Positions 1-17,058 of a DNA stretch of 20,803 nt are shown piece by piece (position 1 is the first letter of the stretch; each line of letters begins with the position of its first letter). The translations under genes were made by a program, and so were the position numbers. The stretch covers positions 1 through 20,803 of IMG/VR virus record IMGVR_UViG_2579778622_000006. The stretch is one strand, 5' to 3'. The notes under the pieces were generated by a model that was not told where the DNA came from, searched no databases, and saw nothing but the letters and a program-made list of their open reading frames with translations. This DNA is from a virus (lineage: Duplodnaviria > Heunggongvirae > Uroviricota > Caudoviricetes).

Positions 1-257
1 AAAAATAAAATAAATACAACAACCTTACGGTGTATTTTGATGTCATTAATGTGAAAAAATTCAATGATATCAAATGGTTTTGTAAAAACACATGGTTGTT
101 GTATCGCGTATTTGATGGCGTAACAGAAAGTGATTTTTAACTTTACCGCTCTGTAACTACGGATTATTCCATGCTGGCACGGAGAACGGCTACGGCATGA
201 CGCCACCCAGCCTATACAGAACAGTAAAGCCGATAAATTGTTAATCACGCGCAGCAA

Positions 258-452
258 TGCGTGTGATTTTTGCACACTTCCGGTTAACGGGTACGATGTC
301 CGGTTTGTTTGTACATTTTTTGCACATGTCCGGTTCGCAGAAAGCATGTTTTTATATTTTTCATATAGTTAACTTGCAGAGAAACCGGACATGGATCCCG
401 AAAAATTTTCATAAATAGTGAAAACGCGCGAGGTCGACGCCCCGTAACGGGT
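258..452 (-). other. cos: lambda-type cos site: cosN-like 12-mer (431-442, GGGCGTCGACCT on minus strand) plus cosB-like repeat region (266-392)
   Basis: Minus-strand read CCGTTACGGGGCGTCGACCTCGCGCGTTTTCACTATTTATGAAAATTTTT is near-identical to the lambda left-end cos as I recall it (GGGCGGCGACCTCGCGGGTTTTCGCTATTTATGAAAATTTTCCGG). Followed by an AT-rich stretch and repeated ATGTCCGGTT motifs (296-305, 326-335, inverted at 383-392). Confidence 0.7.
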
Positions 453-473
453 CCACATGCCGGAAAGGACCCG

Positions 474-497
474 CAAAAAAAGCCGGATTTCTCCGGC
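474..497 (-). terminator. rho-independent terminator ending the capsid operon
   Basis: Hairpin GCCGGA-tttc-TCCGGC (482-497) with an A-run at 474-481 on plus, giving a U-tract after the stem on minus. Lies 7 nt past the stop of the 504-917 gene. Confidence 0.6.
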
Positions 498-503
498 CTT
501 GTC

Positions 504-917
504 TCAGATGGTTTTCAGTATGCGATCGATGTTGCCGTCATCGACCGGGTTTCTGCCATCGTATGCCATGCCAGCTGATACGGCTTTCGGGCTGTGCATG
601 TCCATAAAGTTTTCAAAGGCTGAAGTAAGCTGTGGTGCAACCTTCGGGCGTTCCTGCTCTATGGTCATGCTAAGGATGCTTTTAGCCGTACCAACATCGA
701 TACAAGGCACGTTAGCCATTGCACGTAACAGCGGCTGGTAGTCGTCAGATTCATGAAGCGCCATAATCGCATCAGCGCGCTGCTTGTCCTGTTCTTCCAG
801 TTTGTTTAGTCGGTGTATGGCCTCGTAGGTTGATAAACCTCTGTCAGCCATTGCCCGCGCTTCGGCTTTAAATTTACTCGCCAGCGGTAGCGTCATGATA
901 CTTTCATTCGTTGCCAT
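504..917 (-). CDS. hypothetical protein, last gene of capsid operon (occupies the position of a lambda FI-like packaging protein)
   Basis: 137-aa ORF co-oriented with the capsid genes and followed by a terminator; protein-like acidic composition. No family recognised. Confidence 0.5.
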   Translation of the reverse strand: MATNESIMTLPLASKFKAEARAMADRGLSTYEAIHRLNKLEEQDKQRADAIMALHESDDYQPLLRAMANVPCIDVGTAKSILSMTIEQERPKVAPQLTSAFENFMDMHSPKAVSAGMAYDGRNPVDDGNIDRILKTI

Positions 918-929
918 CGTTCCCCCTGC

Positions 930-1265
930 TTATCGGGCCAGCGGCTGAACGGATACGCCGGAACCCGCAAAGGCGGCGCATTTTTTCGCATCGGTGTCGA
1001 CGCTGTCAGGCCAGTTAACGGCGGCAATATTGAATATCCCCGTTTTGTAACACTGTGCTGATTTCTGCTTTGACGTGTCCACGGGGTGCGAAGTCAGATA
1101 AACAGCTTTGCCAGATTCCTGACCATCCCACGCCTTAAACTCGCCATTGTCTGCCAGCATCAGCGGGGTAAATTCCTGAATAACGCCAGCATCAGCGGCA
1201 AAATGTACCAGCGTCGTGGATACCTGCTGGCTGCCTGCAAATAACTCAATATATGGAGCGTCCAT
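930..1265 (-). CDS. head decoration protein, lambda gpD family
   Basis: 111 aa. Shares TPLMLxD, AWDG, YKTG and AFAG motifs with recalled lambda gpD. GGGGGA RBS. Confidence 0.85.
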   Translation of the reverse strand: MDAPYIELFAGSQQVSTTLVHFAADAGVIQEFTPLMLADNGEFKAWDGQESGKAVYLTSHPVDTSKQKSAQCYKTGIFNIAAVNWPDSVDTDAKKCAAFAGSGVSVQPLAR

Positions 1266-1276
1266 AGAATCCCCCG

Positions 1277-2332
1277 TTAAGCAATTTTGACGGTAACAAA
1301 TTTGCGAATATCTGCCGGTACCGGCTGCGGTGCGCTGTGCGTCTGCACGTACTCAATCGCCGGATCGCCGTCCTCAATCCAGTTTTTCGGGTAGTACATG
1401 TTTTGCGTTGCGCCCGTTCTTACCGCTTCCTGATCCATAATCGCACCATAGGCCACCAGCCCTTTATTATTGGTGTTACCCAGGACCAGCAAATCAGGCT
1501 CAAGGAAATATTTTTCGGTGCCGTCGCTGTCAGTGTATTTGCCGGAATAGACGATAAGGGCCAGATCACCAAGATAGCCTTTAAAGCTCACCACTTCGCC
1601 CAGGTTTTTACAGGCCAGCTCGGCGGCGGATTCTGATCCACGGGAAAGATCGTACAGTTCACGGAATTTTTTAAAGCTGCGTAATGTGCGCCATACCTCA
1701 CCGCCCATAATCATGACGTTGGCGGGGCAACCTGCCTGATCAGCATAAAGCTCGATGTCATAGATTGGGTCGTGCATGTCTTTATCCTGCTGGGACCATT
1801 TTTTACCACTGGCCTGCTGTATGATGCAGTTTTCCGGTATTTTCCAGTCGATTTCATAGCGTTCTATGCCTTCGCCCTCAATGATGTTTTTTCCGGTCGT
1901 TACCGCATTCACCGCCAGCCATTCCACGCGCGCCTTAATGGCGTTTATCTGGCGGCGCATGTTGCCAGTAATCAGGCGCATACGGCGGTAAGTTGGATCG
2001 TTAAGCTGTGCCGGATCTTCTCCAGCCATGCGCATGATGGTCTTTGTTGGATCGATTTCGTGCTTTGGCTTCATGTAGCCAGGTTTAATCGTGCTGGTTT
2101 CGTACCCTTTATCGCGCTGGACCTGACTACCCACCATAGGCGAACAGAAAGCCGACATCGTAACCTCTTCAATGTCCAGGGTGTCCAGCATGATGTTTTG
2201 GGTGTTGAAGGTCGCCACGTTCGGGAAAAACAGCGTGGTAAACAGCGGACTAAATTTAAATTCCGAAATATCCCCGCGATTCAGGTACGCGAAAAGCTGG
2301 TTAGTTGTAAGTGCCGTTGCTTTGCCTGTCAT
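1277..2332 (-). CDS. major capsid protein, lambda gpE family
   Basis: 351 aa. Matches recalled lambda gpE in several blocks: EFKFSPLF, PGYMKPKHE, EDPAQLNDPTYRRMR, YPKNWIEDGDPA. GGAGG RBS. Confidence 0.9.
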   Translation of the reverse strand: MTGKATALTTNQLFAYLNRGDISEFKFSPLFTTLFFPNVATFNTQNIMLDTLDIEEVTMSAFCSPMVGSQVQRDKGYETSTIKPGYMKPKHEIDPTKTIMRMAGEDPAQLNDPTYRRMRLITGNMRRQINAIKARVEWLAVNAVTTGKNIIEGEGIERYEIDWKIPENCIIQQASGKKWSQQDKDMHDPIYDIELYADQAGCPANVMIMGGEVWRTLRSFKKFRELYDLSRGSESAAELACKNLGEVVSFKGYLGDLALIVYSGKYTDSDGTEKYFLEPDLLVLGNTNNKGLVAYGAIMDQEAVRTGATQNMYYPKNWIEDGDPAIEYVQTHSAPQPVPADIRKFVTVKIA

Positions 2333-2538
2333 TATTCACCTCCGTGAACCTGATTCATACCCAGCGCCGCACGTAAATAGGTACGCACCTGCCAGCCTGT
2401 TGACGGCTCAACCATCGCCAGCGGATCAAGTCCTGCCGCAATGCCTGCTTTTACATTCTGCTGGTGGCGTTCCTTGAGCGCCTCCACGATGTCGGGGCTT
2501 ATGTAGACCGTCACCCCGCCTTTTTTCTCTTCTGCCAT
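2332..2538 (-). CDS. hypothetical small protein, first gene of capsid operon
   Basis: 68-aa ORF with AGAGGA RBS; its stop overlaps the MCP start (TAATG), suggesting translational coupling. Confidence 0.5.
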   Translation of the reverse strand: MAEEKKGGVTVYISPDIVEALKERHQQNVKAGIAAGLDPLAMVEPSTGWQVRTYLRAALGMNQVHGGE

Positions 2539-2573
2539 AGTCAGAAATTCCTCTTTGACTTAAAAAATCATAA

Positions 2574-2623
2574 CTGGATGTTCATCCAGTCCTGATTATA
2601 ATCATGATTGCATTTTGCGCAAC
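2574..2623 (-). promoter_or_regulatory. candidate sigma70 promoter of capsid operon with a 16-bp palindromic operator
   Basis: On minus strand: -35 TTGCGC (2617-2622), 16-nt spacer, -10 TATAAT (2595-2600), then perfect palindrome CTGGATG-TT-CATCCAG (2574-2589) at the predicted start region. Confidence 0.35.
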
Positions 2624-2703
2624 AATATTGAGTTACGTTGCAAATTATGAAATGATTATCCCGATCATGTGTGCCAGTGCACCATAAAAAACCTCGTATA
2701 CAA

Positions 2704-2743
2704 AAGCCCGATAAGCCCCCTGTGACCTTATCGGGCTTTTTTT
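2704..2743 (+). terminator. strong intrinsic terminator hairpin on plus strand with no upstream plus-strand CDS
   Basis: 10-bp stem CCCGATAAG(G)/CTTATCGGG with an 11-nt loop, followed by TTTTTTT (2737-2743). Confidence 0.5.
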
Positions 2744-2748
2744 AGGCG

Positions 2749-2771
2749 TAAAAAAGCCGGATTGCTCCGGC
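2749..2771 (-). terminator. rho-independent terminator after the ProQ/FinO gene
   Basis: Hairpin GCCGGA-ttgc-TCCGGC (2756-2771) with an A-run at 2749-2755 on plus (U-tract on minus). Confidence 0.55.
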
Positions 2772-2796
2772 TTCGTCTCTTCATGTGGTCAGGGTT

Positions 2797-3381
2797 TTAT
2801 GCTTTCCGTACGCCCGAGGAACTGGCATTTTTCAGAATAATATTATGCCCTGCTGGTGGCTTACCGTTATGCTTATTTTCTGCCTTCATGTTTCTGCGCT
2901 CCTGCTGTTTTTTCTTCATCTCATCCAGTCGCTTCCCCGCGTTCAACTGGTGCTCCTGTGTCACCTCCCCGCACGGATGGCCTTTCAGGTCGTAACGCAC
3001 GCCACCAGCCATCAGGGAACGGTAATATCGCACTGAACTGACATAATACGCCAGCGTTGCGCGAAGCGCTCCCTGACCTAATGAAATACCTCTCGCAGTA
3101 ATATCCTCCATCAGGTCATCAAATATGCCAACCTTAAGCGGTCTGGGCGATTCCTGGCTGAAAAGTTCAGGCCAGAGCGCGGCAAGGCGTTCAACGCGTC
3201 TGATATTTTTTTTCCGGCTCTTTTCTGATTTGCGTTTTGCTGCCGTCTTCTGTTGTGTTTTCTGCTCGCGGCTCTGCTTTTGCGCTGGTGTGGTTTTATC
3301 CGGCTGTTCAGCCTCCTGCGTCTTTTTCTGCGGTGTGCCGTATATGCCTTTTGGTTTTCGGTTAATGGTCAGCTTTGTCAT
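2797..3381 (-). CDS. ProQ/FinO-domain RNA-binding protein with lysine-rich N-terminal tail
   Basis: 194 aa from the ATG at 3381 (GGGGGAG RBS). C-terminal PLKVGIFDDL...LRATLAYYVSSVRYYRSL...RYDLKGHPCGEV matches the recalled E. coli ProQ N-terminal FinO domain (PLKIGIFQDL...RVDLDGNPCGEL). Confidence 0.75.
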   Translation of the reverse strand: MTKLTINRKPKGIYGTPQKKTQEAEQPDKTTPAQKQSREQKTQQKTAAKRKSEKSRKKNIRRVERLAALWPELFSQESPRPLKVGIFDDLMEDITARGISLGQGALRATLAYYVSSVRYYRSLMAGGVRYDLKGHPCGEVTQEHQLNAGKRLDEMKKKQQERRNMKAENKHNGKPPAGHNIILKNASSSGVRKA

Positions 3382-3460
3382 GTTCTCCCCCTTTGTGCTG
3401 TTCCACCAGCGGCATCTGCTACCCCGTGTCGCTCCCGCTGGTGTCGTGTTTCCCCGCCTG

Positions 3461-3781
3461 TTAATAACCGTCATCATTTACGTTATCAGGGTAATCACGC
3501 CATATTTCATCAGTAAGCGACGGTAGCCCCATCTGTTGTATTGTCCTGTCTGCGGCCCTTCTGACTGCGTGAACATCATAACGGTTTTCAGGTATCGGGC
3601 GCTTTGCCTTCCTGATACATTCCCTTGCTCTCATTGCCGCAAGTTCTCTGTGCCTGTCTTCCTGAAGAGTAATCATCACATCCTGCCACCTTCTGGCAGC
3701 CCGTCGCCACAGTCCCCTGCTCTCGAGTTCTTCTGCTGTCGCGTCGCTTATTGTCCGGTTCTTCGGTGTGCTGTTGTTCAT
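3461..3781 (-). CDS. PerC-family-like transcriptional regulator
   Basis: 106-aa ORF containing AEELESRGLWRRAARRW, the motif I associate with PerC/Pch-type regulators. Assigned from memory of the motif only. Confidence 0.5.
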   Translation of the reverse strand: MNNSTPKNRTISDATAEELESRGLWRRAARRWQDVMITLQEDRHRELAAMRARECIRKAKRPIPENRYDVHAVRRAADRTIQQMGLPSLTDEIWRDYPDNVNDDGY

Positions 3782-3798
3782 GTTGCTCCCCGCCTGAT

Positions 3799-4209
3799 TC
3801 AGAAGGGTATATCATCTCCGTAGGGGTCATCGCCTCCCGCTGGTGGCTCATTCCCCTGTGTGCCTGTGGTTTTGCGTCTGTTCCCGCCATGACGTGCCGC
3901 ACGCGCACTGATTACGCTGTCTGCGATAACCTGCCAGCCCTGCCGCGTTTCCCCGTTCTGTCCGGTCCACTGGCTCACCTGCATGTTACCCGCCACGCTC
4001 AGGAGTTCACCTTTGCGGTGCTTTGCCAGTGCTTCGGCCTGTCTGCCAAACGCCAGCACAGATAACCACATCGTCGCCGTTCCGTCATCTGCCTGGCTGC
4101 ACGGAAGGGGGACCGCCATACTCGCCATCGCCATTTGTGTCCCCTTGCTGGTGGTCTTTAACTGCGGGTCAGCCACCAGCCGCCCGTAAGCCGCTATCTG
4201 TGCTGTCAT
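3799..4209 (-). CDS. ssb: single-stranded DNA-binding protein (short SSB)
   Basis: 136 aa with OB-fold-like core (WLSVLAFGRQAE...KGELLSVAGNMQVSQWTGQNGETR), a Gly-rich linker and the canonical acidic C-terminal tip DDIPF. Confidence 0.85.
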   Translation of the reverse strand: MTAQIAAYGRLVADPQLKTTSKGTQMAMASMAVPLPCSQADDGTATMWLSVLAFGRQAEALAKHRKGELLSVAGNMQVSQWTGQNGETRQGWQVIADSVISARAARHGGNRRKTTGTQGNEPPAGGDDPYGDDIPF

Positions 4210-4457
4210 GCTGTATGCTCTCCGGTTTTAACGTTGATGGTTGTCACCTGTTCCGCTCCGGCAATCTCCCGTTCTGTCAGCGTGGCAAAATTTGCCGCTA
4301 CCGTTGTCATGAATGCGCTTATCAGTTCGGGATGTGCTTTCGCGTATCCTTCTCCCGCGTGGCGGTCTATCGTTCTGATTGCCACCTTTAAGGCGTGCTC
4401 TGTCATGTCTAACGCTTTATATTTTGGCGCTGTCTTATCTCTGGTTTTTCTGTTCAT
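4206..4457 (-). CDS. hypothetical protein
   Basis: ORF 4206-4487; the upstream extension translates the iteron repeats (GEWWG), so the ATG at 4457 is preferred. Overlaps the ssb start. Confidence 0.4.
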   Translation of the reverse strand: MNRKTRDKTAPKYKALDMTEHALKVAIRTIDRHAGEGYAKAHPELISAFMTTVAANFATLTEREIAGAEQVTTINVKTGEHTA

Positions 4458-4458
4458 T

Positions 4459-4670
4459 CCCCACCACTCCCCACTTTTGCTCCCCACTTTTTAAATTCCC
4501 CACTTGCTCCCCACCTCGTTTTTTGAGTGAATCTAATGCTTTGTTTTTCATTGCGTTTTTTACTCCCCACTTTTTTGGATATATACAGGTGGGAAAGTGG
4601 GGAATTATGTTTCAATTTTGTTAAATTCCCCACTCTCCCCACTTTTACTACCCACTTTTTACAGTGGGTA
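4459..4670. repeat. iteron array, putative satellite replication origin
   Basis: At least 9 copies of TCCCCAC(TTTT) in direct orientation (4459, 4468, 4481, 4496, 4508, 4563, 4626, 4635, 4649) plus inverted copies (GTGGGAAAGTGGGGAA at 4588-4604; CAGTGGGTA at 4662-4670), flanking an AT-rich core (4570-4585). Sits immediately 3' of the helicase gene. Confidence 0.6.
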
Positions 4671-6074
4671 AACATCATCCCCATCGACACAAATCACGCC
4701 GTCTTTTTCCAGCTTGGACAGCCAGCGCCGGAAGTGCTTCATCTCATACCCCAGCTTTTTCATATCGTCGCGGAGAAGGGCGATAGTGCATGGCTCTTTG
4801 TGTGCCGTCCGCGTTCTGATGCACTGCCATAGCGCGGTATGGTTTTCCGTCTTGTTGCCTGCCTCCTCGATGCGCTCCAGTTCAACGGGAGAGCGCGGCT
4901 TATCAACCACCACCAGCGACGTGATTAACTCCCCGTCAGCGTCGGTAAAAAGCTCCACCACGCGTAAATCGTAGGCGGCCTCTTTCAGTTCCTCCGCGTC
5001 CTTCATTTTGGTGCAGGATATAACCAGGGCTTTACTGTCTGCACCTTCTCGGCGAATACGGTATTCAGCGTCCAGAGATGCACGAAATGCACTGGAACCA
5101 CGCGCCCCCTTTGTTTCATCCTTGCCGGAATGGTGGACCACCAGCACCGTGGCCCCTGTGCGTCGTTTCAGGTCGTCACATCCACGGATAAACGCCCCCA
5201 TATCCCGCGCGTCATTTTCATCATTACCGCCAAAGCAACGCGCCAGCGTATCCAGAATAATCATGCGTACCGGTTTACCCGTTTCCCGTTCAACCTGGCG
5301 GGAAGCGATAACCATTTCATCAACATCAAGCGGGGCTGCCGGAAAAATCGGGCGGTTTACCAGGTACAGATTTTTCACCCGTTCATCATTAACGATTTCC
5401 CATGCCTTGATACGACGGGGGACACCAATGCCACCTTCACCGACAACATACATCACCGAACCATGCGCCACCCTGCGGCCTCCCCAGTGGCGCCCCGTGG
5501 CAACATGACACGCCCAGGAACACGCAAGGAATGATTTATAGGAACCGCTCGCACCGTATGTGCTGCACAATGAATTAGCCGGAATCACGCCCTTAACGAC
5601 ATAATCAAGCTGTGTGTCGTATCCTGCAGATCCAATGCTCATGGGTAGCGTGGTTTTTCGCTGGCTGTATTGCTCATCAGTAAGTATTTCCCCGCGCTCT
5701 GCCTGTTCGCGGATCCGTTGCAGGTAGTCGCGCCATTCCTCCCGCTTCTGGCTGTGCATTCCCTCGGGGTAATAACTCGCATCCCGTACACCTGCCGCCG
5801 CCAGTTTTTGCCCGATGGCATTAATATTTGATGGCTTGATGTGGCCTGCCTTGTACAGCCGGACACAATAGCGACCATCGTCGATAATTTTCAGGTCTGC
5901 CAGTTCGTCAAGCTGACTGTCTCCCAGCCATACTGGCGGGACGTTATCGCCAGCAAGTCGCCCGTCCTGTTCCTGCCATTGTTTTGCGTGCGCCCAGGCA
6001 TCACTACCTGCAAAAATAATGACTTCGGTCATTTTGTTGTGTGGCTGTTTTTTTAAGTTCGGTGCCAGTTTCAT
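4659..6074 (-). CDS. replication protein: RecA-fold (AAA_25/DnaB-like) helicase with C-terminal winged-helix
   Basis: 471 aa. Walker A GASGSYKS; Walker B-like ILDTLARCF; VLVVHHSGKD motif typical of RepA/DnaB-like ATPases; C-terminal basic wHTH-like segment. Confidence 0.8.
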   Translation of the reverse strand: MKLAPNLKKQPHNKMTEVIIFAGSDAWAHAKQWQEQDGRLAGDNVPPVWLGDSQLDELADLKIIDDGRYCVRLYKAGHIKPSNINAIGQKLAAAGVRDASYYPEGMHSQKREEWRDYLQRIREQAERGEILTDEQYSQRKTTLPMSIGSAGYDTQLDYVVKGVIPANSLCSTYGASGSYKSFLACSWACHVATGRHWGGRRVAHGSVMYVVGEGGIGVPRRIKAWEIVNDERVKNLYLVNRPIFPAAPLDVDEMVIASRQVERETGKPVRMIILDTLARCFGGNDENDARDMGAFIRGCDDLKRRTGATVLVVHHSGKDETKGARGSSAFRASLDAEYRIRREGADSKALVISCTKMKDAEELKEAAYDLRVVELFTDADGELITSLVVVDKPRSPVELERIEEAGNKTENHTALWQCIRTRTAHKEPCTIALLRDDMKKLGYEMKHFRRWLSKLEKDGVICVDGDDVYPL

Positions 6075-6370
6075 TTTTTATCCCTGAATCCGTTAATCAT
6101 GGTTTTCATCTTCTGAATATTGGCGCGTGCTTTCTCCCTGCTGGTTGGTTTACTGCGGGGCGCTGCCTGTACCAGAGAAAAATCACGCCGGAACTGATAA
6201 ACAGGCATCACGCAGTCATATTCGTAGCCATCACGGCGGTAAGTGATGCGCCGTTCTGCCACGCCTTTAATCGTTACCGTACCGCCGTAGTTATCACGGA
6301 AAATATCGCCGGGACGGATTTCAGGCCGAGCGGGGCCGCTGGCAGTAAAGCCAGAATTTTTCTTTTTCAT
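6071..6370 (-). CDS. hypothetical protein
   Basis: 99-aa ORF with AGGAAA RBS; its stop overlaps the helicase start (ATGA). Confidence 0.5.
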   Translation of the reverse strand: MKKKNSGFTASGPARPEIRPGDIFRDNYGGTVTIKGVAERRITYRRDGYEYDCVMPVYQFRRDFSLVQAAPRSKPTSREKARANIQKMKTMINGFRDKK

Positions 6371-6374
6371 GGTT

Positions 6375-6575
6375 TTATTTTCCTGTCAGTGATTCCGGCT
6401 TTATTCCGGCGCGAATACAGGCTTCAGAAAAAAAAGCCAGAGAACCAATAACCTCATTATTTCTAAGGCGGCATTGCGATTTCACTTTCCCTTTATCCAG
6501 GAATATCAAAACGCGCCCCGTATAATCAGATGGCACATTAAGCACTACAGGTAAGTGCGCTTCATGATTATTCAT
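6375..6575 (-). CDS. hypothetical protein
   Basis: 66 aa from the ATG at 6575, preceded by a perfect AGGAGG (6585-6590). The longer ORF start at 6644 lacks an RBS. Confidence 0.5.
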   Translation of the reverse strand: MNNHEAHLPVVLNVPSDYTGRVLIFLDKGKVKSQCRLRNNEVIGSLAFFSEACIRAGIKPESLTGK

Positions 6576-6855
6576 GGCTAACCACCTCCTGGAATTTTCT
6601 TCTGTAACGCGCCTCTGCCACATATTCAGCATAGTCCGACGCAATATTGAGAATATCGCTACCCGTTCCTGAATGTTCGGCGGTTTCCAGTAAAAAACAT
6701 GCAGCTTTTACCATGTCAGCAACACATAACAGCGCAATATCTGTATCTTCCGGTGTGCCATCAAATTCCTGTTTCAGGGCATTAAAACGATCATCACGCA
6801 TAACCCCATATTCACAATCAGCAATCAGGATGGCTTTGGCCTCATTCAGTGCCAT
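6568..6855 (-). CDS. hypothetical acidic protein, first clear gene of the leftward replication operon
   Basis: Protein-like C-terminal 95 aa of the 6568-7809 ORF; the stop overlaps the next start by 8 nt. Start is uncertain because the ATG at 6855 has no clear RBS. Confidence 0.45.
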   Translation of the reverse strand: MALNEAKAILIADCEYGVMRDDRFNALKQEFDGTPEDTDIALLCVADMVKAACFLLETAEHSGTGSDILNIASDYAEYVAEARYRRKFQEVVSHE

Positions 6856-7009
6856 ATCAGCGGTAAGCTGTGCGTAGGCCAGCAAATGCGGGATTATTGC
6901 CCCTGTATATTCCGGCTCTCTGATAATGTGGTCGGATGTGTTGATTAAATAGTTTGTGCGAAAAATGCACCTGTAACCATCAGTTAACAACGGATATACA
7001 GGGGGGACC

Positions 7010-7180
7010 ATGAATGATAAGGGGGTGCCGTTTGATGTGCTCCTGCAAAAGCTGAATGCTGCACGCGCCGCAAGGGAACGTGAGCGCATGAGTAATAACC
7101 CTGTCCCTCCTGAATTACCTCGCCCTGAACATTTTCCGCTTGAGGATTTCATCAGGGGACGAATCCGAACAAAACGATAA
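7010..7180 (+). CDS. hypothetical small protein (56 aa)
   Basis: ATG preceded by a G-run; shares the motif FPLE(D/R)FI with the 7424-7618 ORF. Ambiguous: the opposite strand is one long open frame. Confidence 0.25.
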   Translation: MNDKGVPFDVLLQKLNAARAARERERMSNNPVPPELPRPEHFPLEDFIRGRIRTKR

Positions 7181-7231
7181 CCGCCGCCGTGATATGAGGC
7201 ATCACGACGCAATGCATTACAGGTGAGCACC

Positions 7232-7348
7232 ATGAACAAATCCATATTATCCCCCACAGTTCTGGACGTAAACACAAAGCAGCGACAGATATTATTACGC
7301 GCCGTCATTAAAGCCAGACACGAGAAATTAAACCAAATCTTAAAATAA
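7232..7348 (+). CDS. hypothetical small protein (38 aa)
   Basis: AGGTGA RBS 5 nt upstream of the ATG; amphipathic, protein-like sequence. Confidence 0.3.
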   Translation: MNKSILSPTVLDVNTKQRQILLRAVIKARHEKLNQILK

Positions 7349-7423
7349 GATACGCCGCTACCGCTGTAAGTCTTCATCAGAAACAGAAAACGCCAGAGCA
7401 GATGAGCACGGAGGTAACTCTTT

Positions 7424-7618
7424 ATGAAAATAAACGAATCAGGGGAAATTACCGAAGCCAGCGTGGTACGCCAGCGGAGGCGGGAACGACGGGTACGGCC
7501 CCCCGCGCCATCCGATAATTTCCCGCTTGAGCGCTTCATCAGTGAACGGCCCCGCATACGCTGGAACGGCACAACCCCATACCCCGAGGAGAGACAGACA
7601 AAAAACAAACAGCGATGA
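7424..7618 (+). CDS. hypothetical small basic protein (64 aa)
   Basis: GGAGGT RBS 8 nt upstream of the ATG; Arg-rich; FPLERFI motif paralogous to the 7010 ORF. Confidence 0.3.
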   Translation: MKINESGEITEASVVRQRRRERRVRPPAPSDNFPLERFISERPRIRWNGTTPYPEERQTKNKQR

Positions 7619-7897
7619 TGAAATCTGGAGGCCAATACCATCACGCAGCCATCAGGAGATTGCTGACGCGCTTCCTGTTCGCTGGTGGCCTCGATGGTAA
7701 TCACGCGCGGTTGTGCAGTGCTCAGGGCGATAAAACGCCACACAAAGGCCGTTTGTGTGTGCGCCAGGCGTGGGGTATGCTGTCTTACAGCCATAAAACT
7801 ACCTCTCATAACGGTTTGTGGTTAGAAGCCCCGTTACTGCTCCAACAGTGCGGGGCTTCGTCGTTTCAATTGCTGAATTGCATGTATCAGCCCTTGT

Positions 7898-7951
7898 GGT
7901 ATTCAGATTACGTTTTGGTGAATAACATTTCAAGTCTTTTTTGGTATTCAC
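7898..7951 (+). promoter_or_regulatory. candidate operator repeats upstream of the RHH gene
   Basis: TGGTATTCA at 7898-7906 and 7942-7950, with an inverted partner GGTGAATAA at 7916-7924 (TATTCA-N12-TGAATA dyad), in the AT-rich region upstream of the 7995 start. Confidence 0.35.
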
Positions 7952-7994
7952 TTTTGTATTACACTGCATCACGTTATTAATCGGAGGTGCAAAC

Positions 7995-8300
7995 ATGTCC
8001 ACGAGTTCTGTTAACAATAAGTCACAGCAACTGAATGCCAGATTTCCACATGAAGTAGTGAGTGGCATTGAGGCATCCCTACAGCCGGGGGAAACTAAAG
8101 CGAATTTTATAGTTACGGCTGTACGCGGAGAGATCGCCCGCCGCCAGGCAGAAGGAAGAGGAGAAAATCCCCTAGTTTCTTCGCTCGATGCACTGGCGCA
8201 GGTGGAAAAAATCGGTGTCAAAGCTGCCGAGGAGATCGGGCAACTCGTCGCCGTTGCGCGTGAAGAACTCCAGCGGCGCAAAGCCAAAGAGCAGGAATAG
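7995..8300 (+). CDS. ribbon-helix-helix-like DNA-binding protein with coiled-coil C-terminus
   Basis: 101 aa from the ATG at 7995 (GGAGGTG RBS). N-terminal beta-strand/helix pattern (LNARFPHEVVSGIEAS...KANFIVTAVRGEIARR) typical of RHH/Arc-type regulators; followed by a terminator. Confidence 0.6.
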   Translation: MSTSSVNNKSQQLNARFPHEVVSGIEASLQPGETKANFIVTAVRGEIARRQAEGRGENPLVSSLDALAQVEKIGVKAAEEIGQLVAVAREELQRRKAKEQE

Positions 8301-8331
8301 CCCACCAGCAAGCCACCACACTGATCACATT

Positions 8332-8360
8332 GGCCACCGTGACAGGTGGCCTTTGTTTTG
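8332..8360 (+). terminator. rho-independent terminator after the RHH gene
   Basis: GGCCACC-gtgaca-GGTGGCC followed by TTTGTTTTG. Confidence 0.6.
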
Positions 8361-8454
8361 CCTGTTATCCGGCAATTGTGGAGCTTCGTCACACGGTTGA
8401 TATAATTCCCCTGCTCAGATTCATTTTTTGCGCGGCAGGTAAATTGTTCAGAAA

Positions 8455-8482
8455 GGCGGCTCCTTATCGGGGCCGCTTTTTT
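8455..8482. terminator. second hairpin with T-tract between the convergent RHH and alpA genes
   Basis: GCGGC-tccttatcgg-GCCGC followed by TTTTTT (8477-8482) on plus; possibly bidirectional. Confidence 0.4.
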
Positions 8483-8508
8483 CGTGTTTGTCATATCTGT
8501 GATACCCG

Positions 8509-8715
8509 TTAAGCAGCCGTTCCGCGTGCTTCCTGTTCGCGTTCTTTCTGCCAGGCCAACACATCATCCTCATACCATCCGCGACGGCGTAAACCAACGC
8601 GAAAACCCTGCGGAAATTCTCCGGCGTTGATCATGCTTTGCAGCGTGCTGTCTGCCTTGATGTGGATAATTTTTTTTACTTCCTGGCGAAAGATAATTTT
8701 TCTGATTGCTTCCAT
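8509..8715 (-). CDS. alpA: AlpA-family phage transcriptional regulator / excisionase-like HTH protein
   Basis: 68 aa; pattern IIFRQEVKK...GEFPQGFRVGLRRRGWYEDDVLAW matches the AlpA/Vis HTH_17 architecture. Confidence 0.8.
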   Translation of the reverse strand: MEAIRKIIFRQEVKKIIHIKADSTLQSMINAGEFPQGFRVGLRRRGWYEDDVLAWQKEREQEARGTAA

Positions 8716-8848
8716 CGTGATTTACCTTGTGAATCCGGTGTATTCCGGTGACAAATACGGTAAATCATCGGATATGGGTAAAAACAGTTCCCACCGTTTT
8801 TAAACGGTATACACCGTTTTTTATATTGATGATTTGAAATGGAATTAT

Positions 8849-8872
8849 AAAAAAAGCGGCATTTCTGCCGCT
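8849..8872 (-). terminator. rho-independent terminator after the orf83/int transcript
   Basis: AGCGGCA-gaaa-TGCCGCT on minus followed by TTTTTTT (plus 8849-8855 is an A-run); 10 nt past the stop at 8883. Confidence 0.55.
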
Positions 8873-8882
8873 TCCAGGATTG

Positions 8883-9134
8883 TTACCGCCATTTTTTGGG
8901 CCTGCCTCCGATCTTCATAGATGCCGGACGTACGACCTTATCAATACTTACCGCCAGATTTCTGGAAGCGCCACGGGATACCAGAAAATCTACTACCTGT
9001 TTTTTTGATGGGGCCGTCGTCCTGTCCTCCGGATCGTAGGTTGACCAAAATTCATGCTGAACCATCAGGGCCAGTTGCAGCCCGTCGCAATTGCATCTGA
9101 TATTTTTTTGCATCTTAACGGTTTCATGTTTCAC
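8883..9134 (-). CDS. hypothetical protein between int and alpA
   Basis: 83-aa ORF (GTG at 9134 or ATG at 9113) with a terminator directly downstream. Start uncertain. Confidence 0.45.
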   Translation of the reverse strand: MKHETVKMQKNIRCNCDGLQLALMVQHEFWSTYDPEDRTTAPSKKQVVDFLVSRGASRNLAVSIDKVVRPASMKIGGRPKKWR

Positions 9135-9211
9135 GGCCTTGTCGTTAAATTTGATGCAATTATACGACGGTTTTACATGGTTTTCGTAGTTTTTACTGGT
9201 TTTCTGTACAG

Positions 9212-10453
9212 CTACACGGCTCGGATACCCCTTTTACCACTGGCGAGGGTTACGCCCGTCGCCGCAGCCTCGACAAATTCGCCCCACCAGCGCATCAGCA
9301 CGATGCGTTTTTCTATGTAGTTGCTCCGGTTGTATGCCCGTCTAACTTCGTTGGTGTCGACGTGGGCAAGTGCCGCCTCTATTACGTCCGGCTCGAATCC
9401 TTCCTCGTTCGCTGCTGTGCTGAATATGGCGCGTAATCCATGAGACACCAGCACGCCAGCGAATCCCATACGCCGCAATGCTGCGTTAGCTGTCTGGCTG
9501 TTCATCGGCTGCTGTGGGTCTTTCAGACTTGGGAAAACGTAATTGCGGTGGTGGCTGATTGGTTTCATGGCCTCCAGCACCGCCATAGCCTGACCGGAAA
9601 GCGGGATAACGTGATCCCTGCGCATCTTCATGCGTCCGGCAGGTATCGTCCATTGCTTCGCGTCCAGGTTGATTTCATCCCACCGCGTTGATGACGCTTC
9701 GGCGGGACGGGTTACGGTCAGTAACTGCCATTCAATCAGTAATCTGGTCTGCCGTTCTGTTGCCGATACTGATAAAGCCTGCATAAGCTCGGGCAGCTGT
9801 TCGGGGCGGATTGTTGGCATATGTTTTTTTACAGGTGAGGGAAACGCCTTACGCACATTCATAGCCGGATTGGCATCAATCAGCCCACTGTTGGCGGCGT
9901 AATCCATTACCTCATTAACGCGCTGTAAAACCCGCTTGAGTGTTTCCAGGTTGCCGCGCTCCTTGATGGGGGTAAGCACTTCAACGAACCTTCGGGCGGT
10001 GAGGGTATCTATTGGCGTGTTGCCGATGAACGGGAATACATATTTATCCAGCGAACGCCAGATGTCTTTAATCGTGTTGGGGGCCAGATTCTGGCTGATT
10101 TTCACCTGGTACCATGCCGCCGCCACATTTTCGAACGTGTTCCCTTGTCTTCGGGCCTCTGTCTCTCTTTTTTGCCTCTCGTGGTCCTGCGGGTCAGTTC
10201 CGGCACTGATTAACGTCCTGTACTCGCTACGGCGTTTTCTGGCATCAGCCAGGGAAACATCTTCAAGCGATCCAAAACTCAGCAATATTCTTTTTTTGTC
10301 CGATGGTCGGTAGTAGGAAAATCTCCAGAGTTTTGATCCAGACGGTTTGACCAGGAGAAAAAGCCCTCCGCCGTCCTGCAGGGTGTACTCCTTTTGCGCT
10401 GGTCTGGCTGCTTTGATCTGCACTGTGGTTAATGGGTGTGTTTTTCTCGCCAT
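9212..10453 (-). CDS. int: tyrosine recombinase, P4-type integrase
   Basis: N-terminal arm-binding-like domain (LTTVQIKAARPAQKEYTLQDGGGLFLLVKPSGSKLWRFSYY), catalytic C-terminus with R...HGLR and terminal RAYNRSNY (Tyr). Adjacent to the tRNA 3' remnant. ATG at 10453 preferred over the GTG at 10471. Confidence 0.9.
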   Translation of the reverse strand: MARKTHPLTTVQIKAARPAQKEYTLQDGGGLFLLVKPSGSKLWRFSYYRPSDKKRILLSFGSLEDVSLADARKRRSEYRTLISAGTDPQDHERQKRETEARRQGNTFENVAAAWYQVKISQNLAPNTIKDIWRSLDKYVFPFIGNTPIDTLTARRFVEVLTPIKERGNLETLKRVLQRVNEVMDYAANSGLIDANPAMNVRKAFPSPVKKHMPTIRPEQLPELMQALSVSATERQTRLLIEWQLLTVTRPAEASSTRWDEINLDAKQWTIPAGRMKMRRDHVIPLSGQAMAVLEAMKPISHHRNYVFPSLKDPQQPMNSQTANAALRRMGFAGVLVSHGLRAIFSTAANEEGFEPDVIEAALAHVDTNEVRRAYNRSNYIEKRIVLMRWWGEFVEAAATGVTLASGKRGIRAV

Positions 10454-10485
10454 ATGTCTATGATTCCACACGAAAAAACAGGGTT

Positions 10486-10539
10486 TTAGTTATACGGCTT
10501 TAGTTATACGTCAGCCCGTATAACTAAACGTATAACTAA
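10486..10539. repeat. integrase arm-type site candidates: four 11-mers TTAGTTATACG (two direct, two inverted)
   Basis: Direct copies at 10486-10496 and 10500-10510; inverted copies CGTATAACTAA at 10517-10527 and 10529-10539; between the int start and the att core. Confidence 0.5.
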
Positions 10540-10590
10540 AAAATCCGGCTGATAGCTTATAAATCCGGTGATGTTCGGTGACTAAAAAAC

Positions 10591-10625
10591 ATAAAAAAAC
10601 CCGCCAATCAAGTGATTAGCGGGTT
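10591..10625 (-). terminator. hairpin with U-tract downstream of the tRNA 3' remnant (weak terminator)
   Basis: AACCCGC/GCGGGTT stem with a 14-nt loop; the A-run at 10593-10599 on plus gives a U-tract on minus. Confidence 0.35.
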
Positions 10626-10636
10626 ATCCCTGTCTT

Positions 10637-10664
10637 ATCCGGTGCTTTCCGGTGATATCCGGTG
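10637..10664. repeat. three tandem (A/T)TCCGGTG heptamer-core repeats at 10-bp period next to the att core
   Basis: ATCCGGTG (10637-10644), TTCCGGTG (10647-10654), ATCCGGTG (10657-10664). Related copies at 10564-10580 and at 8731-8750 in the alpA promoter region. Confidence 0.45.
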
Positions 10665-10671
10665 GGCGATT

Positions 10672-10720
10672 TGGTCGGCACGAGAGGATTTGAACCTCCG
10701 ACCCCCGACACCCCATGACG
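10672..10720 (-). other. tRNA-Pro (GGG-type) 3'-end fragment, 49 nt, not an intact gene; integration (att) junction
   Basis: Minus-strand read CGTCATGGGGTGTCGGGGGTCGGAGGTTCAAATCCTCTCGTGCCGACCA equals the anticodon-loop-to-CCA portion of E. coli tRNA-Pro as recalled; the sequence 5' of it cannot form the acceptor or D arm. Confidence 0.65.
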
Positions 10721-10912: not shown

Positions 10913-11764
10913 ATGAAAAAAAGAACTAAAAAAGGCAGTAACATTCGTTTCCGAGAACACACTGAGGTTGAGAGGTCTTACATTAGCCTTTATAAGATCT
11001 TCTGCCGCGCTTGTGAAATTTCCGCGGCCATATCACTGAATCAAAGCGGAATTAAGACTGACGGCAGGGGAATACGGGCTGCAAATATTTTCACTCGTCA
11101 AGTGTTGACTGCGCATAGTCTTAAGAAACTACTACCAGTACTGCGAAACGGAGTTAATCCCGATGATACAGTATGGGATGTAACCACTATCGCACTTGTG
11201 TCCAGAAGTGTGATGGAAAATTTTCAGGCGCTTTTTTATTACGGAACGGAAACGGTCTCGGAAGCGGAGGCTGACTTTCGTTTTCGAATTTTCCAGAAAG
11301 ACAGAAATGTTAAATGGCGTGATATCAGACTGAAGGCTGGTGAATCTGAAGAATCACTGGAGGAGTTTTTCACCGGCATACCAAAGCAGCAGGAGGAGAT
11401 AGTGAACCATGAATTCTATAGTTCACTATCTAAAGAACAAAAGAATAGTCTCAAAAACAGGGCCGAAATGTATTATACCAAAGCTGAGTTCGAAGCTCGC
11501 TGCCCGCGGTTAGCCGACATTGCACTACATCACCAGTTACTATCAAATCTGGCTCATCCATTGCCACTGGCTATCCACAGGATTGATGAATTTAGCGGTC
11601 ATGGTGCACCCAGTGAAGCTGACATCTGCTTAGTCATAATATCCCTGAAGGTTGCTACAGACTGCCTAATTGCGTCAGTTGAGGGGATGGGCGAAAAATT
11701 TGCCGATAGTATCGGTATACATTATCGGTCAATGATTGAAGAACTCTCCAATTACTCACTTTGA
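10913..11764 (+). CDS. hypothetical protein, AT-rich cargo gene (candidate accessory or defence function)
   Basis: 283-aa ORF, the only plus-strand gene between the att remnant and the lambdoid int; visibly lower GC than its flanks; convergent terminator hairpin downstream; R-x6-H motif (RLADIALH) in the C-terminal third. Confidence 0.6.
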   Translation: MKKRTKKGSNIRFREHTEVERSYISLYKIFCRACEISAAISLNQSGIKTDGRGIRAANIFTRQVLTAHSLKKLLPVLRNGVNPDDTVWDVTTIALVSRSVMENFQALFYYGTETVSEAEADFRFRIFQKDRNVKWRDIRLKAGESEESLEEFFTGIPKQQEEIVNHEFYSSLSKEQKNSLKNRAEMYYTKAEFEARCPRLADIALHHQLLSNLAHPLPLAIHRIDEFSGHGAPSEADICLVIISLKVATDCLIASVEGMGEKFADSIGIHYRSMIEELSNYSL

Positions 11765-11792
11765 AATTAATACATTCCTCAACTTCCAACAC

Positions 11793-11821
11793 AGAGCAAC
11801 CCGTCCAATTTGGTTTGCTCT
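11793..11821. terminator. hairpin between the convergent 283-aa gene and int
   Basis: AGAGCAA...TTGCTCT stem (with extension) followed by GCTTTATAC. Confidence 0.4.
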
Positions 11822-11857
11822 GCTTTATACTAAAGCAATAAAGGGAGTAATTTATTA

Positions 11858-13036
11858 TTAGCTGGCTTTAATTTCTCCATGGGGAACGACAACCCAATCT
11901 ATATGATTTTGCGTGTAGATCTTGGTTGACTTCGCATCGCTGTGCGCCATTCGTCCTTGTGGATCGATACCCTGCTGATCGAATAGATGCGCTGCTAGTG
12001 CTCGAATTTCGTGAAAGGTTGGTCTTTCATCCATTGGTAGATTGTCGCATAAACCTAGTTTGTCCCGTGTAGCTGAAAACGACCTACTCAAATAGTCCGG
12101 TGCAACTTGAGTAGGATGTGAAACCTCTTTGCTGCGTTTAACTTGGCGTTCTGGGATCCTGTGAACGACAAACGGACTGGCCACATTATCTCGGCTATCG
12201 TCAATTATCCGTTTCAACTCTTCACCAATTGGTATTGCAACGTGTGACGCCTCTTTTTGTTGCACTTTTTGCCTGTGGATGTAAAGCGTCCCATATATGC
12301 CATTTTGTGGTTGTTCGAACCAGACACATCCACATATACCGTCTTTAGGTTCGCGAATTGAGTAACGGATTCGCGATACTTCGAGTCGTGCATGTGTAGT
12401 CTGCAATGCTAGGTCCATTGCTGTTCTTAACCATGGTGCAGCGGCCTGCCTGATAGCTATAAAATGCTCGAGTGACAGGCGCCGTCTTTTCTTCTCATCA
12501 GTCCTACGCATTTTTTTTCTGATGGCCGGGTTATCCAGCATTAGTGATTCATCGACCGCATAAGAGAACAACTTTTTAAGAAAGCTGACCTTTCTGTTCT
12601 GCACATTTGCGGATGCGCTGGCATGATATTTGTTGATGTAGGTATTAACGTGTTCAAGTTCGATATCGCATGCCGGAACATTTACGAAAAACGCTTTTAC
12701 GCGTAGAGCGTCATTTTTCCAGTCATCTAAGGTGCTCTGGGAAGGACGTTCGTCTTCGATAATTCGGGCCATTATGTGATCAACATGTTCAGCAAATGGT
12801 TTTGCTTCTCCGATAACACCGCCAGATTCTCTAATAAGATTATCTACTGATGGAGATAATTCTGGTCGCATCCTCAGGTTGTACTCTCTGGCGATTGCAA
12901 TGGCTATTGCCCTATCCTTACCTATATTTTTCTTCTTTCCGGTAATAAGTGTGAATTTATAAACACCTCGATCTTTATCAAAAATCAGATAATCAGGAAG
13001 ATGTCTGTATTCTTTTTTACGTGGCCTTGCCGCCAT
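11858..13036 (-). CDS. int: tyrosine integrase, lambda Int family
   Basis: Aligns to recalled lambda Int in several blocks (LSLEHFIAIRQAA..WLRTAMDLA vs LTADEYLKIYQAA..WLRLAMELA; RPTFHEIRALAAHLF vs PPTFHELRSLSARLY). ATG at 13036 with GAGGGGTGA RBS; the ORF-track start at 13042 is a GTG. Confidence 0.9.
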   Translation of the reverse strand: MAARPRKKEYRHLPDYLIFDKDRGVYKFTLITGKKKNIGKDRAIAIAIAREYNLRMRPELSPSVDNLIRESGGVIGEAKPFAEHVDHIMARIIEDERPSQSTLDDWKNDALRVKAFFVNVPACDIELEHVNTYINKYHASASANVQNRKVSFLKKLFSYAVDESLMLDNPAIRKKMRRTDEKKRRRLSLEHFIAIRQAAAPWLRTAMDLALQTTHARLEVSRIRYSIREPKDGICGCVWFEQPQNGIYGTLYIHRQKVQQKEASHVAIPIGEELKRIIDDSRDNVASPFVVHRIPERQVKRSKEVSHPTQVAPDYLSRSFSATRDKLGLCDNLPMDERPTFHEIRALAAHLFDQQGIDPQGRMAHSDAKSTKIYTQNHIDWVVVPHGEIKAS

Positions 13037-13038
13037 GG

Positions 13039-13248
13039 TCACCCCTCATTTATTAACTTGCGAACAGCTTGACTAACCATTGAGTCGACTCCCCATTTTT
13101 CTGTTTCGCAGACAAAAACAGAACCGTCCACGATACGCCCCATGAGCAGACCGTTCTCGACCCAGCGTTTTATCGTTCGGTTGTCAGGAATTGAGCCATT
13201 AGAGAATTCACGGCGTCCCCATTGGCTCGCTTTCATTAGTTTTGCCAT
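13039..13248 (-). CDS. xis: excisionase (Xis-like)
   Basis: 69 aa from the ATG at 13248 (GGAGAAA RBS). Pattern ASQWGRREF...RTIKRWVENGLL...DGSVFV resembles lambda Xis (LQEWNARQ...ETVRRWVRE). Lies immediately upstream of int. Confidence 0.7.
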   Translation of the reverse strand: MAKLMKASQWGRREFSNGSIPDNRTIKRWVENGLLMGRIVDGSVFVCETEKWGVDSMVSQAVRKLINEG

Positions 13249-13309
13249 GGCTGTTTCTCCACTTAACCCGCTGCACACGGGCAGTAATATCAAATTTCAG
13301 TCCTGATAA

Positions 13310-13525
13310 TTAATTTTGTTCTATGGTTGCTACCTGTTTAATTGGCCTGATGCTGTCCAGGAGCAGTCGGCGGCGCGTATTTTCTGCAAAGTGGCGGCGT
13401 CCGGTTTCTTTGTGGTAAAACTCGTTTTTTCCGACGACCCACATCCGCTTTGTCTGGTGCAGTTTTTTTACCTGCGGACCGTTTCGGGTAATAACAATTC
13501 CTGTATGAGTTTTTATCACGCTCAT
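13310..13525 (-). CDS. hypothetical protein
   Basis: 71-aa ORF with GGAGAA RBS; start overlaps the upstream stop (ATGA). Confidence 0.5.
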   Translation of the reverse strand: MSVIKTHTGIVITRNGPQVKKLHQTKRMWVVGKNEFYHKETGRRHFAENTRRRLLLDSIRPIKQVATIEQN

Positions 13526-13884
13526 TTCTTATTCTCCGGTGCTTTCGGCATTACTGCCCAGTGAGTGATATTGACGTTTTCAAGGTCCCCGACCTGAAAT
13601 GTCCACTGCCATTCTCCGGTTTCTTTTTGCCCCCATGTGTACCAGAGAGAACGCCAGCCAATCAGCCAGCCTTCTCCGTTAGCATCAAATAACAGAACAC
13701 TTTCATTTGCTGGTGGCAGTTCAGCTGACACTGGTATTACTTTGTTTTCCAGTGCTGCACATTTAGCTTCAAGCGCATCTAATTTACGCACCAGGTATTC
13801 AGCATCCGTTTCATTCACTTTCAGGTCTCGTGGTACACATCTCCCGCGAAGAAACCCTTCCATTTCGAAAACATTCATGCGCAT
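13522..13884 (-). CDS. hypothetical prophage protein (Trp-rich C-terminal domain)
   Basis: 120-aa ORF, GGAG RBS 8 nt upstream of the ATG; coiled-coil N-terminus and Trp-rich C-terminus. Confidence 0.5.
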   Translation of the reverse strand: MRMNVFEMEGFLRGRCVPRDLKVNETDAEYLVRKLDALEAKCAALENKVIPVSAELPPANESVLLFDANGEGWLIGWRSLWYTWGQKETGEWQWTFQVGDLENVNITHWAVMPKAPENKK

Positions 13885-15082: not shown

Positions 15083-15109
15083 GGTACATTATGTATCTCA
15101 AAGGTACAT
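15083..15109. promoter_or_regulatory. candidate left operator (O_L) dyads
   Basis: GGTACAT-t-ATGTATC (15083-15097) overlapping ATGTATC-tcaaa-GGTACAT (15091-15109); same half-site family as the dyads flanking the cI start. Confidence 0.45.
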
Positions 15110-15153
15110 TGTCAAGTATAAAAAAACCTGCCGAAGCAGGTTCATAACATTGA

Positions 15154-15828: not shown

Positions 15829-15844
15829 AACGAAATTAAAACCT

Positions 15845-15915
15845 TTGTACCGTTAAGGTACAAGTATCTTGAAGGTTCATTTCAATCATGTAATATGTAT
15901 ACCGGGGGTACATAT
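15845..15915. promoter_or_regulatory. right operator region (O_R) with two palindromes between cI and cro-like starts
   Basis: TTGTACC-gttaa-GGTACAA (15845-15863) and ATATGTATACC-ggg-GGTACATAT (15893-15915). Confidence 0.5.
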
Positions 15916-15918
15916 TGT

Positions 15919-16119: not shown

Positions 16120-16150
16120 CAGAAGACCTTCAATTTTTAACCACAGAACG

Positions 16151-17049: not shown

Positions 17050-17058
17050 AGGTCGGTC

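Follow-up and report, generated by a model that had tools for sequence, protein, structure and literature searches.

A candidate iteron origin beside the RepA-family helicase gene of an Escherichia coli PICI, and a helicase residue that covaries with the iterons

The closest described systems are the replication modules of PICIs and SaPIs. In the PICI EcCICFT073, the iteron region next to rep was established as the origin by experiment (PMC6092414). The rep-ori of this island maintains a temperature-sensitive plasmid, while a rep mutant does not (Fillol-Salom et al. 2018, PMC6092414). SaPI Reps are self-loading helicases whose C-terminal winged helix reads iterons of 5-6 nt just downstream of rep (PMC9371898). 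The Pri-Rep of EcCICFT073 has a P4-family/SF3 core and matches the primase_Cterm profile TIGR01613, and its iterons have the form GGTAGA(C/T)AG. Satellite P4 encodes the initiator alpha, which combines a primase with an SF3 helicase and needs a second cis region, crr, located kilobases away. The C-terminal winged-helix domain of P4 alpha reportedly binds octamer iterons. In the IncQ plasmid RSF1010, iteron binding and priming fall to two further proteins, RepC and RepB, besides the helicase RepA.

The window analysed here is a stretch of 20,803 bp, of which positions 1-10720 are 99.99% identical to an island at tRNA-Pro/yejM of E. coli B771. The element is an E. coli PICI of ~11 kb and belongs to the EcCICFT073/EcCIO42 family. 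Its PICI context comprises an integrase, AlpA, a unidirectional operon, cos, the length of ~11 kb and a specific att site. The gene order follows that of EcCICFT073 and EcCIO42 (int, alpA, icd-like, DUF4222, rep, ori, an ORF of 83-85 aa, ssb, perC, capsid, decoration, cos). The main features of the island are as follows.

395-475, minus strand: lambda-like cos region, with GGGCGTCGACCT at 431-442 (one mismatch to lambda cos)
3799-4209, minus strand: ssb, island-encoded single-strand DNA-binding protein (Pfam SSB, E=6.7e-16)
4206-4457, minus strand: conserved 83-aa ORF (phrog_1231, function unknown), the first gene past the candidate origin
4659-6074, minus strand: rep, encoding a 471-aa RepA-family helicase with a RecA fold (Pfam AAA_25, E=8.5e-44)
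4662-4889, minus strand: coding region of the Rep C-terminal domain (residues 396-471), a predicted winged helix-turn-helix
6071-6370, minus strand: DUF4222 gene, which shares 4 bp with the start of rep and is translationally coupled to it
8509-8715, minus strand: AlpA-like HTH regulator
9212-10471, minus strand: tyrosine integrase

The rep product is named 'helicase RepA family protein' in RefSeq. It consists of an N-terminal domain of ~134 aa, an ATPase core (~150-390) and a C-terminal winged helix (408-471), and its sole sequence match in the PDB is a weak one to RSF1010 RepA (1g8y). The Pri-Rep of EcCIO42 is also a RepA-family helicase and is 86% identical to the window Rep, but it falls into a class with Asn at residue 447 and CTCAC iterons, whereas the window has His447 and CCCAC iterons. 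The Pri-Rep of EcCICFT073 shares only the N-terminal 134 aa with the window Rep (residues 1-134, encoded at 5673-6074 on the minus strand; 61% identity), the remainder being unrelated. Unlike that protein, the window Rep has no primase or P4-family profile match, and the iterons of the two islands are unrelated. Neither profile nor fold searches detected a primase domain in the window Rep. Its N-terminal domain is predicted as a confident alpha/beta fold (pLDDT 76-90), for which the fold search returned no primase signature or function.

Past the 83-aa ORF, the gene order is ssb, perC, a ProQ/FinO gene, major capsid and head-decoration. The ProQ/FinO-family RNA chaperone gene (2797-3477, minus strand) lies between perC and the capsid genes, and both EcCICFT073 and EcCIO42 lack it at this position. 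A 413-aa ORF (6568-7809, minus strand) combines an Icd-like/HTH N-terminus with a phrog_2512 C-terminus. The RefSeq annotation of the identical island has no single gene there; PGAP instead reports an Icd-like pseudogene with a frameshift. The neighbouring 231-aa ORF (7799-8494, minus strand) has no match in Pfam, PHROGs or NCBIfam, and relatives carry several small ORFs in the 6568-8494 position. Each of these two ORFs may represent cargo with an accessory or defence function, or may be an artefact of annotation. Beyond the integrase gene, TAGTTATACG occurs four times, twice direct and twice inverted (10487-10538 and 10672-10720), and the copies resemble arm-type sites of an integrase. The next feature is a 3' fragment of tRNA-Pro, in which the identity to B771 ends 48 nt into the tRNA; ARAGORN found no whole tRNA. 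After the fragment comes a prophage (10913-20803) with an integrase, KilA-N, a LexA-like ymfK and yfdQ. A single tRNA-Pro site seems to hold both the PICI and the prophage, one after the other in tandem.

The 201-bp gap between the helicase stop and the 83-aa ORF is filled by a repeat array, and the flanking genes are all on the minus strand. As the helicase gene is also on this strand, 3' of the gene means lower coordinates. The original prediction of an array directly 3' of the helicase gene proved correct, with the array beginning 2 bp past the rep stop (4659-4661) in gene sense. It had further placed the array across the ends of both neighbouring genes. Overlap with rep is marginal, since only the outermost inverted copy lies inside the last codons (..Y-P-L-stop), and overlap with the next ORF holds only for a longer version with a GTG start that reaches 4487. 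RefSeq relatives annotate the ATG of this ORF at 4457-4455, so the array abuts it without overlap. The components of the array are listed below.

4458, 4468, 4481, 4497, 4508, 4564, 4627 and 4636, plus strand: starts of exact TCCCCAC copies
4597-4603, minus strand: exact TCCCCAC copy
17613 and 19775: TCCCCAC copies outside the array, both within the adjacent prophage, with none elsewhere in the island
4458-4516, plus strand: rep-distal iteron cluster, with direct TCCCCAC copies at 4458, 4468, 4481, 4497 and 4508
4517-4563: AT-rich spacer 1, 47 bp, peaking at 73% A+T over 30-mers; a candidate site of unwinding
4564-4603: candidate origin core, a perfect 10-bp inverted iteron pair of TCCCCACTTT (4564-4573) and AAAGTGGGGA (4594-4603)
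4604-4626: AT-rich spacer 2, with a 30-mer peak of 73% A+T
4627-4660, plus strand: rep-proximal iteron cluster, with TCCCCAC at 4627 and 4636 and TACCCAC at 4649
4663-4670, minus strand: inverted CCCAC copy in the last rep codons

The window contains 11 exact copies of TCCCCAC, nine of them within 185 bp (4458-4642). Shuffling the whole window with dinucleotides preserved gave a mean of 2.36 copies and a maximum of 7, and none of the 100 shuffles reached the observed 11. Three degenerate copies share the CCCAC core, namely TACCCAC at 4649 on the plus strand and inverted copies at 4589-4593 and 4664-4668, bringing the total to 12 cores over 4458-4670. At least nine direct copies plus inverted ones had been predicted, a count that is reached if the degenerate direct copy at 4649 is included; the exact copies number eight on the plus strand and one on the minus strand. 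A T-run is present on six copies (4468, 4481, 4564, 4597 on the minus strand, 4636 and 4649), and the full iteron unit of ~13 bp with the T-run reads ACTCCCCACTTTT on the plus strand and AAAAGTGGGGAGT in gene sense. The two copies with a T-run are 13 bp apart in the rep-distal cluster (4468 and 4481) as well as in the rep-proximal cluster (4636 and 4649). A longer repeat of 18 nt, TTTTrCTCCCCACTTTTT, recurs at 4475, 4558 and 4643 with spacings of 83 and 85 bp, or ~8 helical turns.

The arms of the inverted pair are 100% complementary and stand 20 nt apart, bracketing TTTGGATATATACAGGTGGG. The interior holds a central TATATAC (4580-4586) and the additional inverted CCCAC at 4589-4593. A short AT-rich core had been predicted, and AT-rich DNA does lie between the repeats, but it is divided into two spacers that are only moderately AT-rich. 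Both spacers are ~2 SD below the mean stability of the window, the least stable DNA of which is found elsewhere. The strand is C/T-rich (GC skew -0.27). No DnaA box (up to one mismatch) and no GATC occur in 4430-4690, and scans of the origin region for IHF and Fis sites returned no convincing site. The inverted copy at 4663-4670 is probably not a working site, as judged from its sequence, because it alone among the copies stays the same whatever the iteron type of a relative, showing no G-to-A switch in elements of the N447 class, and is constrained by the codons of ..P-L-stop. Two further elements were considered and dropped. The TATATAC box was tried as a -10 element, and the scan of 4100-5000 gave no promoter in the gap. 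The hairpin at the rep stop (ACCCACT-N6-AGTGGGT) was tried as a terminator; no T-run follows it, and it is lost in CTCAC-class elements.

The array at 4458-4660 is very likely the Rep-dependent origin of this EcCICFT073/EcCIO42-family PICI, read by the predicted winged helix of Rep. As in other Gram-negative PICIs, the candidate origin is located directly 3' of rep and has iteron sets around AT-rich DNA. The window origin is a new allele (H447/CCCAC) of a described kind of origin, with a layout already published for PICIs. The only functional proof concerns the SF3-type allele of EcCICFT073 (PMC6092414) and not the Rep/iteron type of the window.

The array might instead be an operator only, through which Rep or another regulator controls transcription of the 83-aa ORF, ssb, perC and the capsid genes while replication starts elsewhere. 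The array stops one base short of the ATG that starts the next ORF, and its iteron is GTGGGGA in the coding strand; binding would therefore affect the expression of this ORF. Many plasmid iterons also autoregulate. However, the scan of 4100-5000 revealed neither a sigma-70-like promoter nor a terminator in the gap, and the palindromic TATATA core, the AT-rich gaps and the 6-12 sites over 200 bp go beyond the needs of an operator. The syntenic region of EcCICFT073 is a proven origin (PMC6092414). Control of transcription would moreover be compatible with origin function rather than exclusive of it, and an operator without origin function appears improbable.

The origin reading gains from comparison with relatives. 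Among 5,426 complete E. coli genomes, 344 contain the intergenic array region, with identities of 75-100%. A broader comparison covered 160 further loci with a relative of the helicase (80 from contigs of one genome per species and 80 from IMG/VR); 139 loci were non-redundant. With at least four copies of the locus' own core just 3' of rep as the criterion, an array was found in 126 of the 139, from more than 15 enterobacterial genera. The absence of the repeats from homologous elements had been named beforehand as an observation that would speak against an origin. The repeats are conserved across relatives instead, so this test does not refute the origin.

The order of sites within the array is kept from Escherichia to Xenorhabdus, Kosakonia, Serratia, Morganella, Pectobacterium and Erwinia. 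Starting from the rep stop, it runs through 2-3 direct sites, an inverted site, the (TG)TATATA spacer, a direct site, an AT-rich gap of 45-50 bp and then 2-5 direct distal sites. The inverted pair with a core-to-core spacer of 24-26 bp and a central (TG)TATATA is found in nearly all of 70 distinct origins, and this core occurs in all three iteron classes and in every genus. In the rep-proximal cluster, relatives keep the positions of the sites while the bases switch in concert.

The replication module also occurs in other surroundings. In three E. coli loci, rep-ori-ssb is joined to a fusion gene of a ClpP-like prohead protease and a major capsid protein. The fusion gene is as in capsid-forming PICIs and replaces the lambda E/D-like pair of capsid and decoration genes. 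This arrangement of capsid genes indicates that the replication module moves between PICI subtypes. Deposited phage genomes gave no match to the rep module in a megablast search.

The iteron core switches in concert within each element, in direct and inverted strong copies alike, and reads CCCAC, CTCAC or CGCAC. In gene sense the classes are GTGGG, GTGAG and GTGCG (GTG[N]G, with base 4 variable). Residue 447 of the helicase follows base 4, with His or Lys for G, Asn for A and Ser for C, and there are no exceptions among the 126 non-redundant loci with at least four own-core copies. The window Rep belongs to the H447/CCCAC class and carries His447 (codon at 4734-4736) in the motif K446-H447-F-R-R450-W451. 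Among the 471 helicase columns, 447 alone reaches an MI/H of 1.00, with a runner-up of 0.53. The best columns of flanking proteins reach 0.49 in the 83-aa protein, 0.27 in DUF4222 and 0.18 in SSB. The pairing of His or Lys with G and of Asn with A fits common preferences between side chains and bases.

Close relatives sharpen this association. In the closest cross-class pairs, H447N and one further change are the only differences within the last 90 aa, and no difference except that at residue 447 is shared by all of these pairs. A tree of 87 distinct Rep C-terminal domains, for which residue 447 was masked, requires at least nine changes of iteron class, compared to a mean of 33 for shuffled traits. 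Linkage between the codon of residue 447 and the iterons (~75-280 bp) could inflate the covariation. Variable residues encoded nearer to the iterons (453, 457 and 462-469) do not covary, though, which argues against mere linkage. Within the RepA type, the Rep N-terminal domain exists in two mosaic versions that are independent of iteron class. Three loci encode helicases that are ~65% identical overall to that of the window, differ from it at 0-1 of the C-terminal 32 residues and share its TCCCCAC iterons.

The predicted structure of the C-terminal domain fits a role in DNA binding. In the AF2 model, the last 76 residues have a mean pLDDT of 87 and form helices at 410-424, 431-440 and 448-457 and a beta hairpin at 461-470. 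The top PDB matches in Foldseek are all winged-helix DNA binders (DtxR/IdeR, HrcA, LexA, Fur and MecI), with TM scores of 0.6-0.67 and probabilities above 0.9; their E-values are weak, which is to be expected with 70 residues. The third helix (448-457) is the recognition helix of the predicted winged helix, and residue 447 forms its N-cap. On balance, a single contact between residue 447 and base 4 probably sets origin specificity in RepA-type PICI replicons, by the pairs H/K-G, N-A and S-C. The covariation at residue 447 and the predicted winged helix both lend support to the claim of the original prediction that the C-terminal domain of Rep reads the iterons. Together with synteny and conservation, they also support its reading of the array as an origin of the SaPI/PICI type.

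A separate protein (DUF4222, the 83-aa protein or AlpA) might read the iterons and recruit the helicase, much as RepC does for RepA at the IncQ oriV. The ATPase core of the window Rep is homologous to that of RSF1010 RepA, a helicase that relies on another protein for iteron binding, and DUF4222 is translationally coupled to rep. Yet the DUF4222 protein and the 83-aa protein of EcCICFT073 are 74% and 81% identical to those of the window despite the unrelated iterons, which argues against either of them as the iteron reader. The best columns of the 83-aa protein and DUF4222 explain no more than 0.49 and 0.27 of iteron class, respectively, against 1.00 for residue 447, and Rep itself has a predicted winged helix. 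A reader other than Rep is therefore highly unlikely.

There is very little to recommend the array as a packaging site, such as a cos or pac with repeats bound by the terminase small subunit. Genes for capsid and decoration proteins are present on the island, which needs to be packaged, but the iterons covary with Rep and with no packaging protein. The lambda-like cos at 431-442 with its conserved flanks (395-475), as in the published EcCICFT073 cos, argues that the array does not have this function. These flanks agree with the 'CFT073 cos.1' sequence given in the supplementary material of PMC6092414, and the sequence of the cos region implies that a lambdoid helper terminase packages the island. 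An origin of the repeats by chance, in low-complexity DNA rich in pyrimidines, or their role in a structured RNA can practically be dismissed, since the C/T-rich strand and the weak, sub-threshold Rfam matches given by the inverted repeats are set against the shuffling result and against sites that are conserved and switch in concert over many genera, while the Rfam matches at 4300-4800 are to eukaryotic families only and far below gathering scores, and the 3' hairpin is not kept in CTCAC-class elements.

The candidate origin resembles several known systems in layout more than in its proteins. The similarity to SaPIs (Rep1, Rep2 and PriRep5; PMC9371898) includes an initiator-helicase with a C-terminal winged helix and the reading of short iterons, both predicted for the window, as well as 6-12 iterons directly downstream of rep, an AT-rich middle and the absence of DnaA boxes. 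SaPI ATPases are of the SF3 or MCM-like AAA+ type, while the window Rep is a RecA-fold RepA/AAA_25 protein, and SaPI iterons form 'two opposed sets', while those of the window are mostly direct with one inverted pair around a TATATA centre (PMC9371898). There is no sequence relationship between the two. With P4 alpha, the window Rep shares the satellite-encoded initiator and an iteron-binding C-terminal winged helix, again predicted. The suggested P4-type layout, however, applies by analogy only, as the window Rep has no P4-type primase or SF3 domain and the island has no second iteron cluster that could act as a second cis site.

The ATPase core of Rep is homologous to RepA of IncQ RSF1010 (PF13481), but in the window the helicase itself carries the predicted DNA-binding domain. 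No RepB or RepC homologues were recognised among the island genes scanned. The locus also differs from iteron plasmids with WH1-WH2 initiators (pPS10, R6K and RK2), which combine a Rep that is not a helicase with DnaA boxes and the loading of host DnaB at the origin, given that the candidate initiator is itself a helicase and a DnaA box is absent. In the cores of the SV40 large T antigen and papillomavirus E1 origins, inverted sites for the initiator-helicase bracket a short AT-rich element. The inverted sites around the AT-rich element of the window are alike by analogy only, with unrelated proteins, a different kingdom and a different helicase superfamily. By this analogy, the palindromic core suggests a head-to-head assembly of a double ring.

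Combining these observations, replication of the island might proceed as follows. After induction, the rightward operon on the minus strand would express the 471-aa Rep. The winged helix of Rep would bind the ~13-bp iterons, and His447 would read base 4 of GTG[G]G, as suggested by the covariation and the fold prediction. Two Rep assemblies could then form head to head on 4564-4573 and 4594-4603, with the TATATAC box between them. Cooperative binding or wrapping may be contributed by the direct arrays on either side, which are phased at ~84 bp. Melting would take place at the TATATA box, at the adjacent 47-bp AT-rich spacer or at both, and rings of the RecA-fold, RepA-type ATPase would self-load without DnaA. 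Single strands would be coated by the island SSB, and the primase and polymerase of the host would complete replication. Assembly of Rep into rings is assumed here because the full-length model is poor (pLDDT 64); its fold search returned generic RecA/Rossmann-like matches only. Self-loading on duplex DNA is not known for RSF1010-type RepA helicases, nor has it been described for the class of RecA-fold RepA helicases. The palindrome-TATATA core points to a possible place where a RecA-fold helicase might self-load on duplex DNA.

On one and the same island backbone, Rep alleles come from two helicase superfamilies, RecA-fold RepA and SF3/P4-type. The N-terminal domain fused to them is common to the two types, whereas the iterons are particular to each. 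If the contact between residue 447 and base 4 does set specificity, a single amino acid change and a concerted change of ~6 sites would have created a new orthogonal replicon at least nine times. Such a contact would represent a natural, programmable code between origin and initiator, and could be the basis for satellite incompatibility groups. Within the RepA type, the residue-base rule would tell which origin a given Rep fires, and sequence would then suffice to predict how satellites cross-talk, which are incompatible and which can reside together. A literature search found no description of the residue-base rule or of the palindrome-TATATA core.

Several relatives depart from the three simple classes. 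One IMG/VR locus encodes an N447 Rep and has mostly CTCAC strong iterons, while its first two distal copies (aligned to 4458-4478 of the window) still read CCCAC. This origin may contain a joint left by recombination, or may represent an evolutionary intermediate in a switch of specificity. A series of loci from Serratia, Pectobacterium, Morganella, Erwinia and others encodes Lys447 Reps (K-K-F-x-R-W) with AAGTGGGGGAA iterons, which have one G more than those of the His class. Reps with the motif D-T-K-H-L-K-R-W are accompanied by GTGGGC in place of GTGGGG. The sequences of these two groups hint at a second covarying pair of residue and base beyond 447. Four Xenorhabdus loci encode N447 Reps and have the repeats AAATGAGGA, with ATGAG rather than GTGAG. 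They were scored as 'weak' because the counter for GTGNG misses ATGAG, and may constitute a further specificity class in which base 1 has changed.
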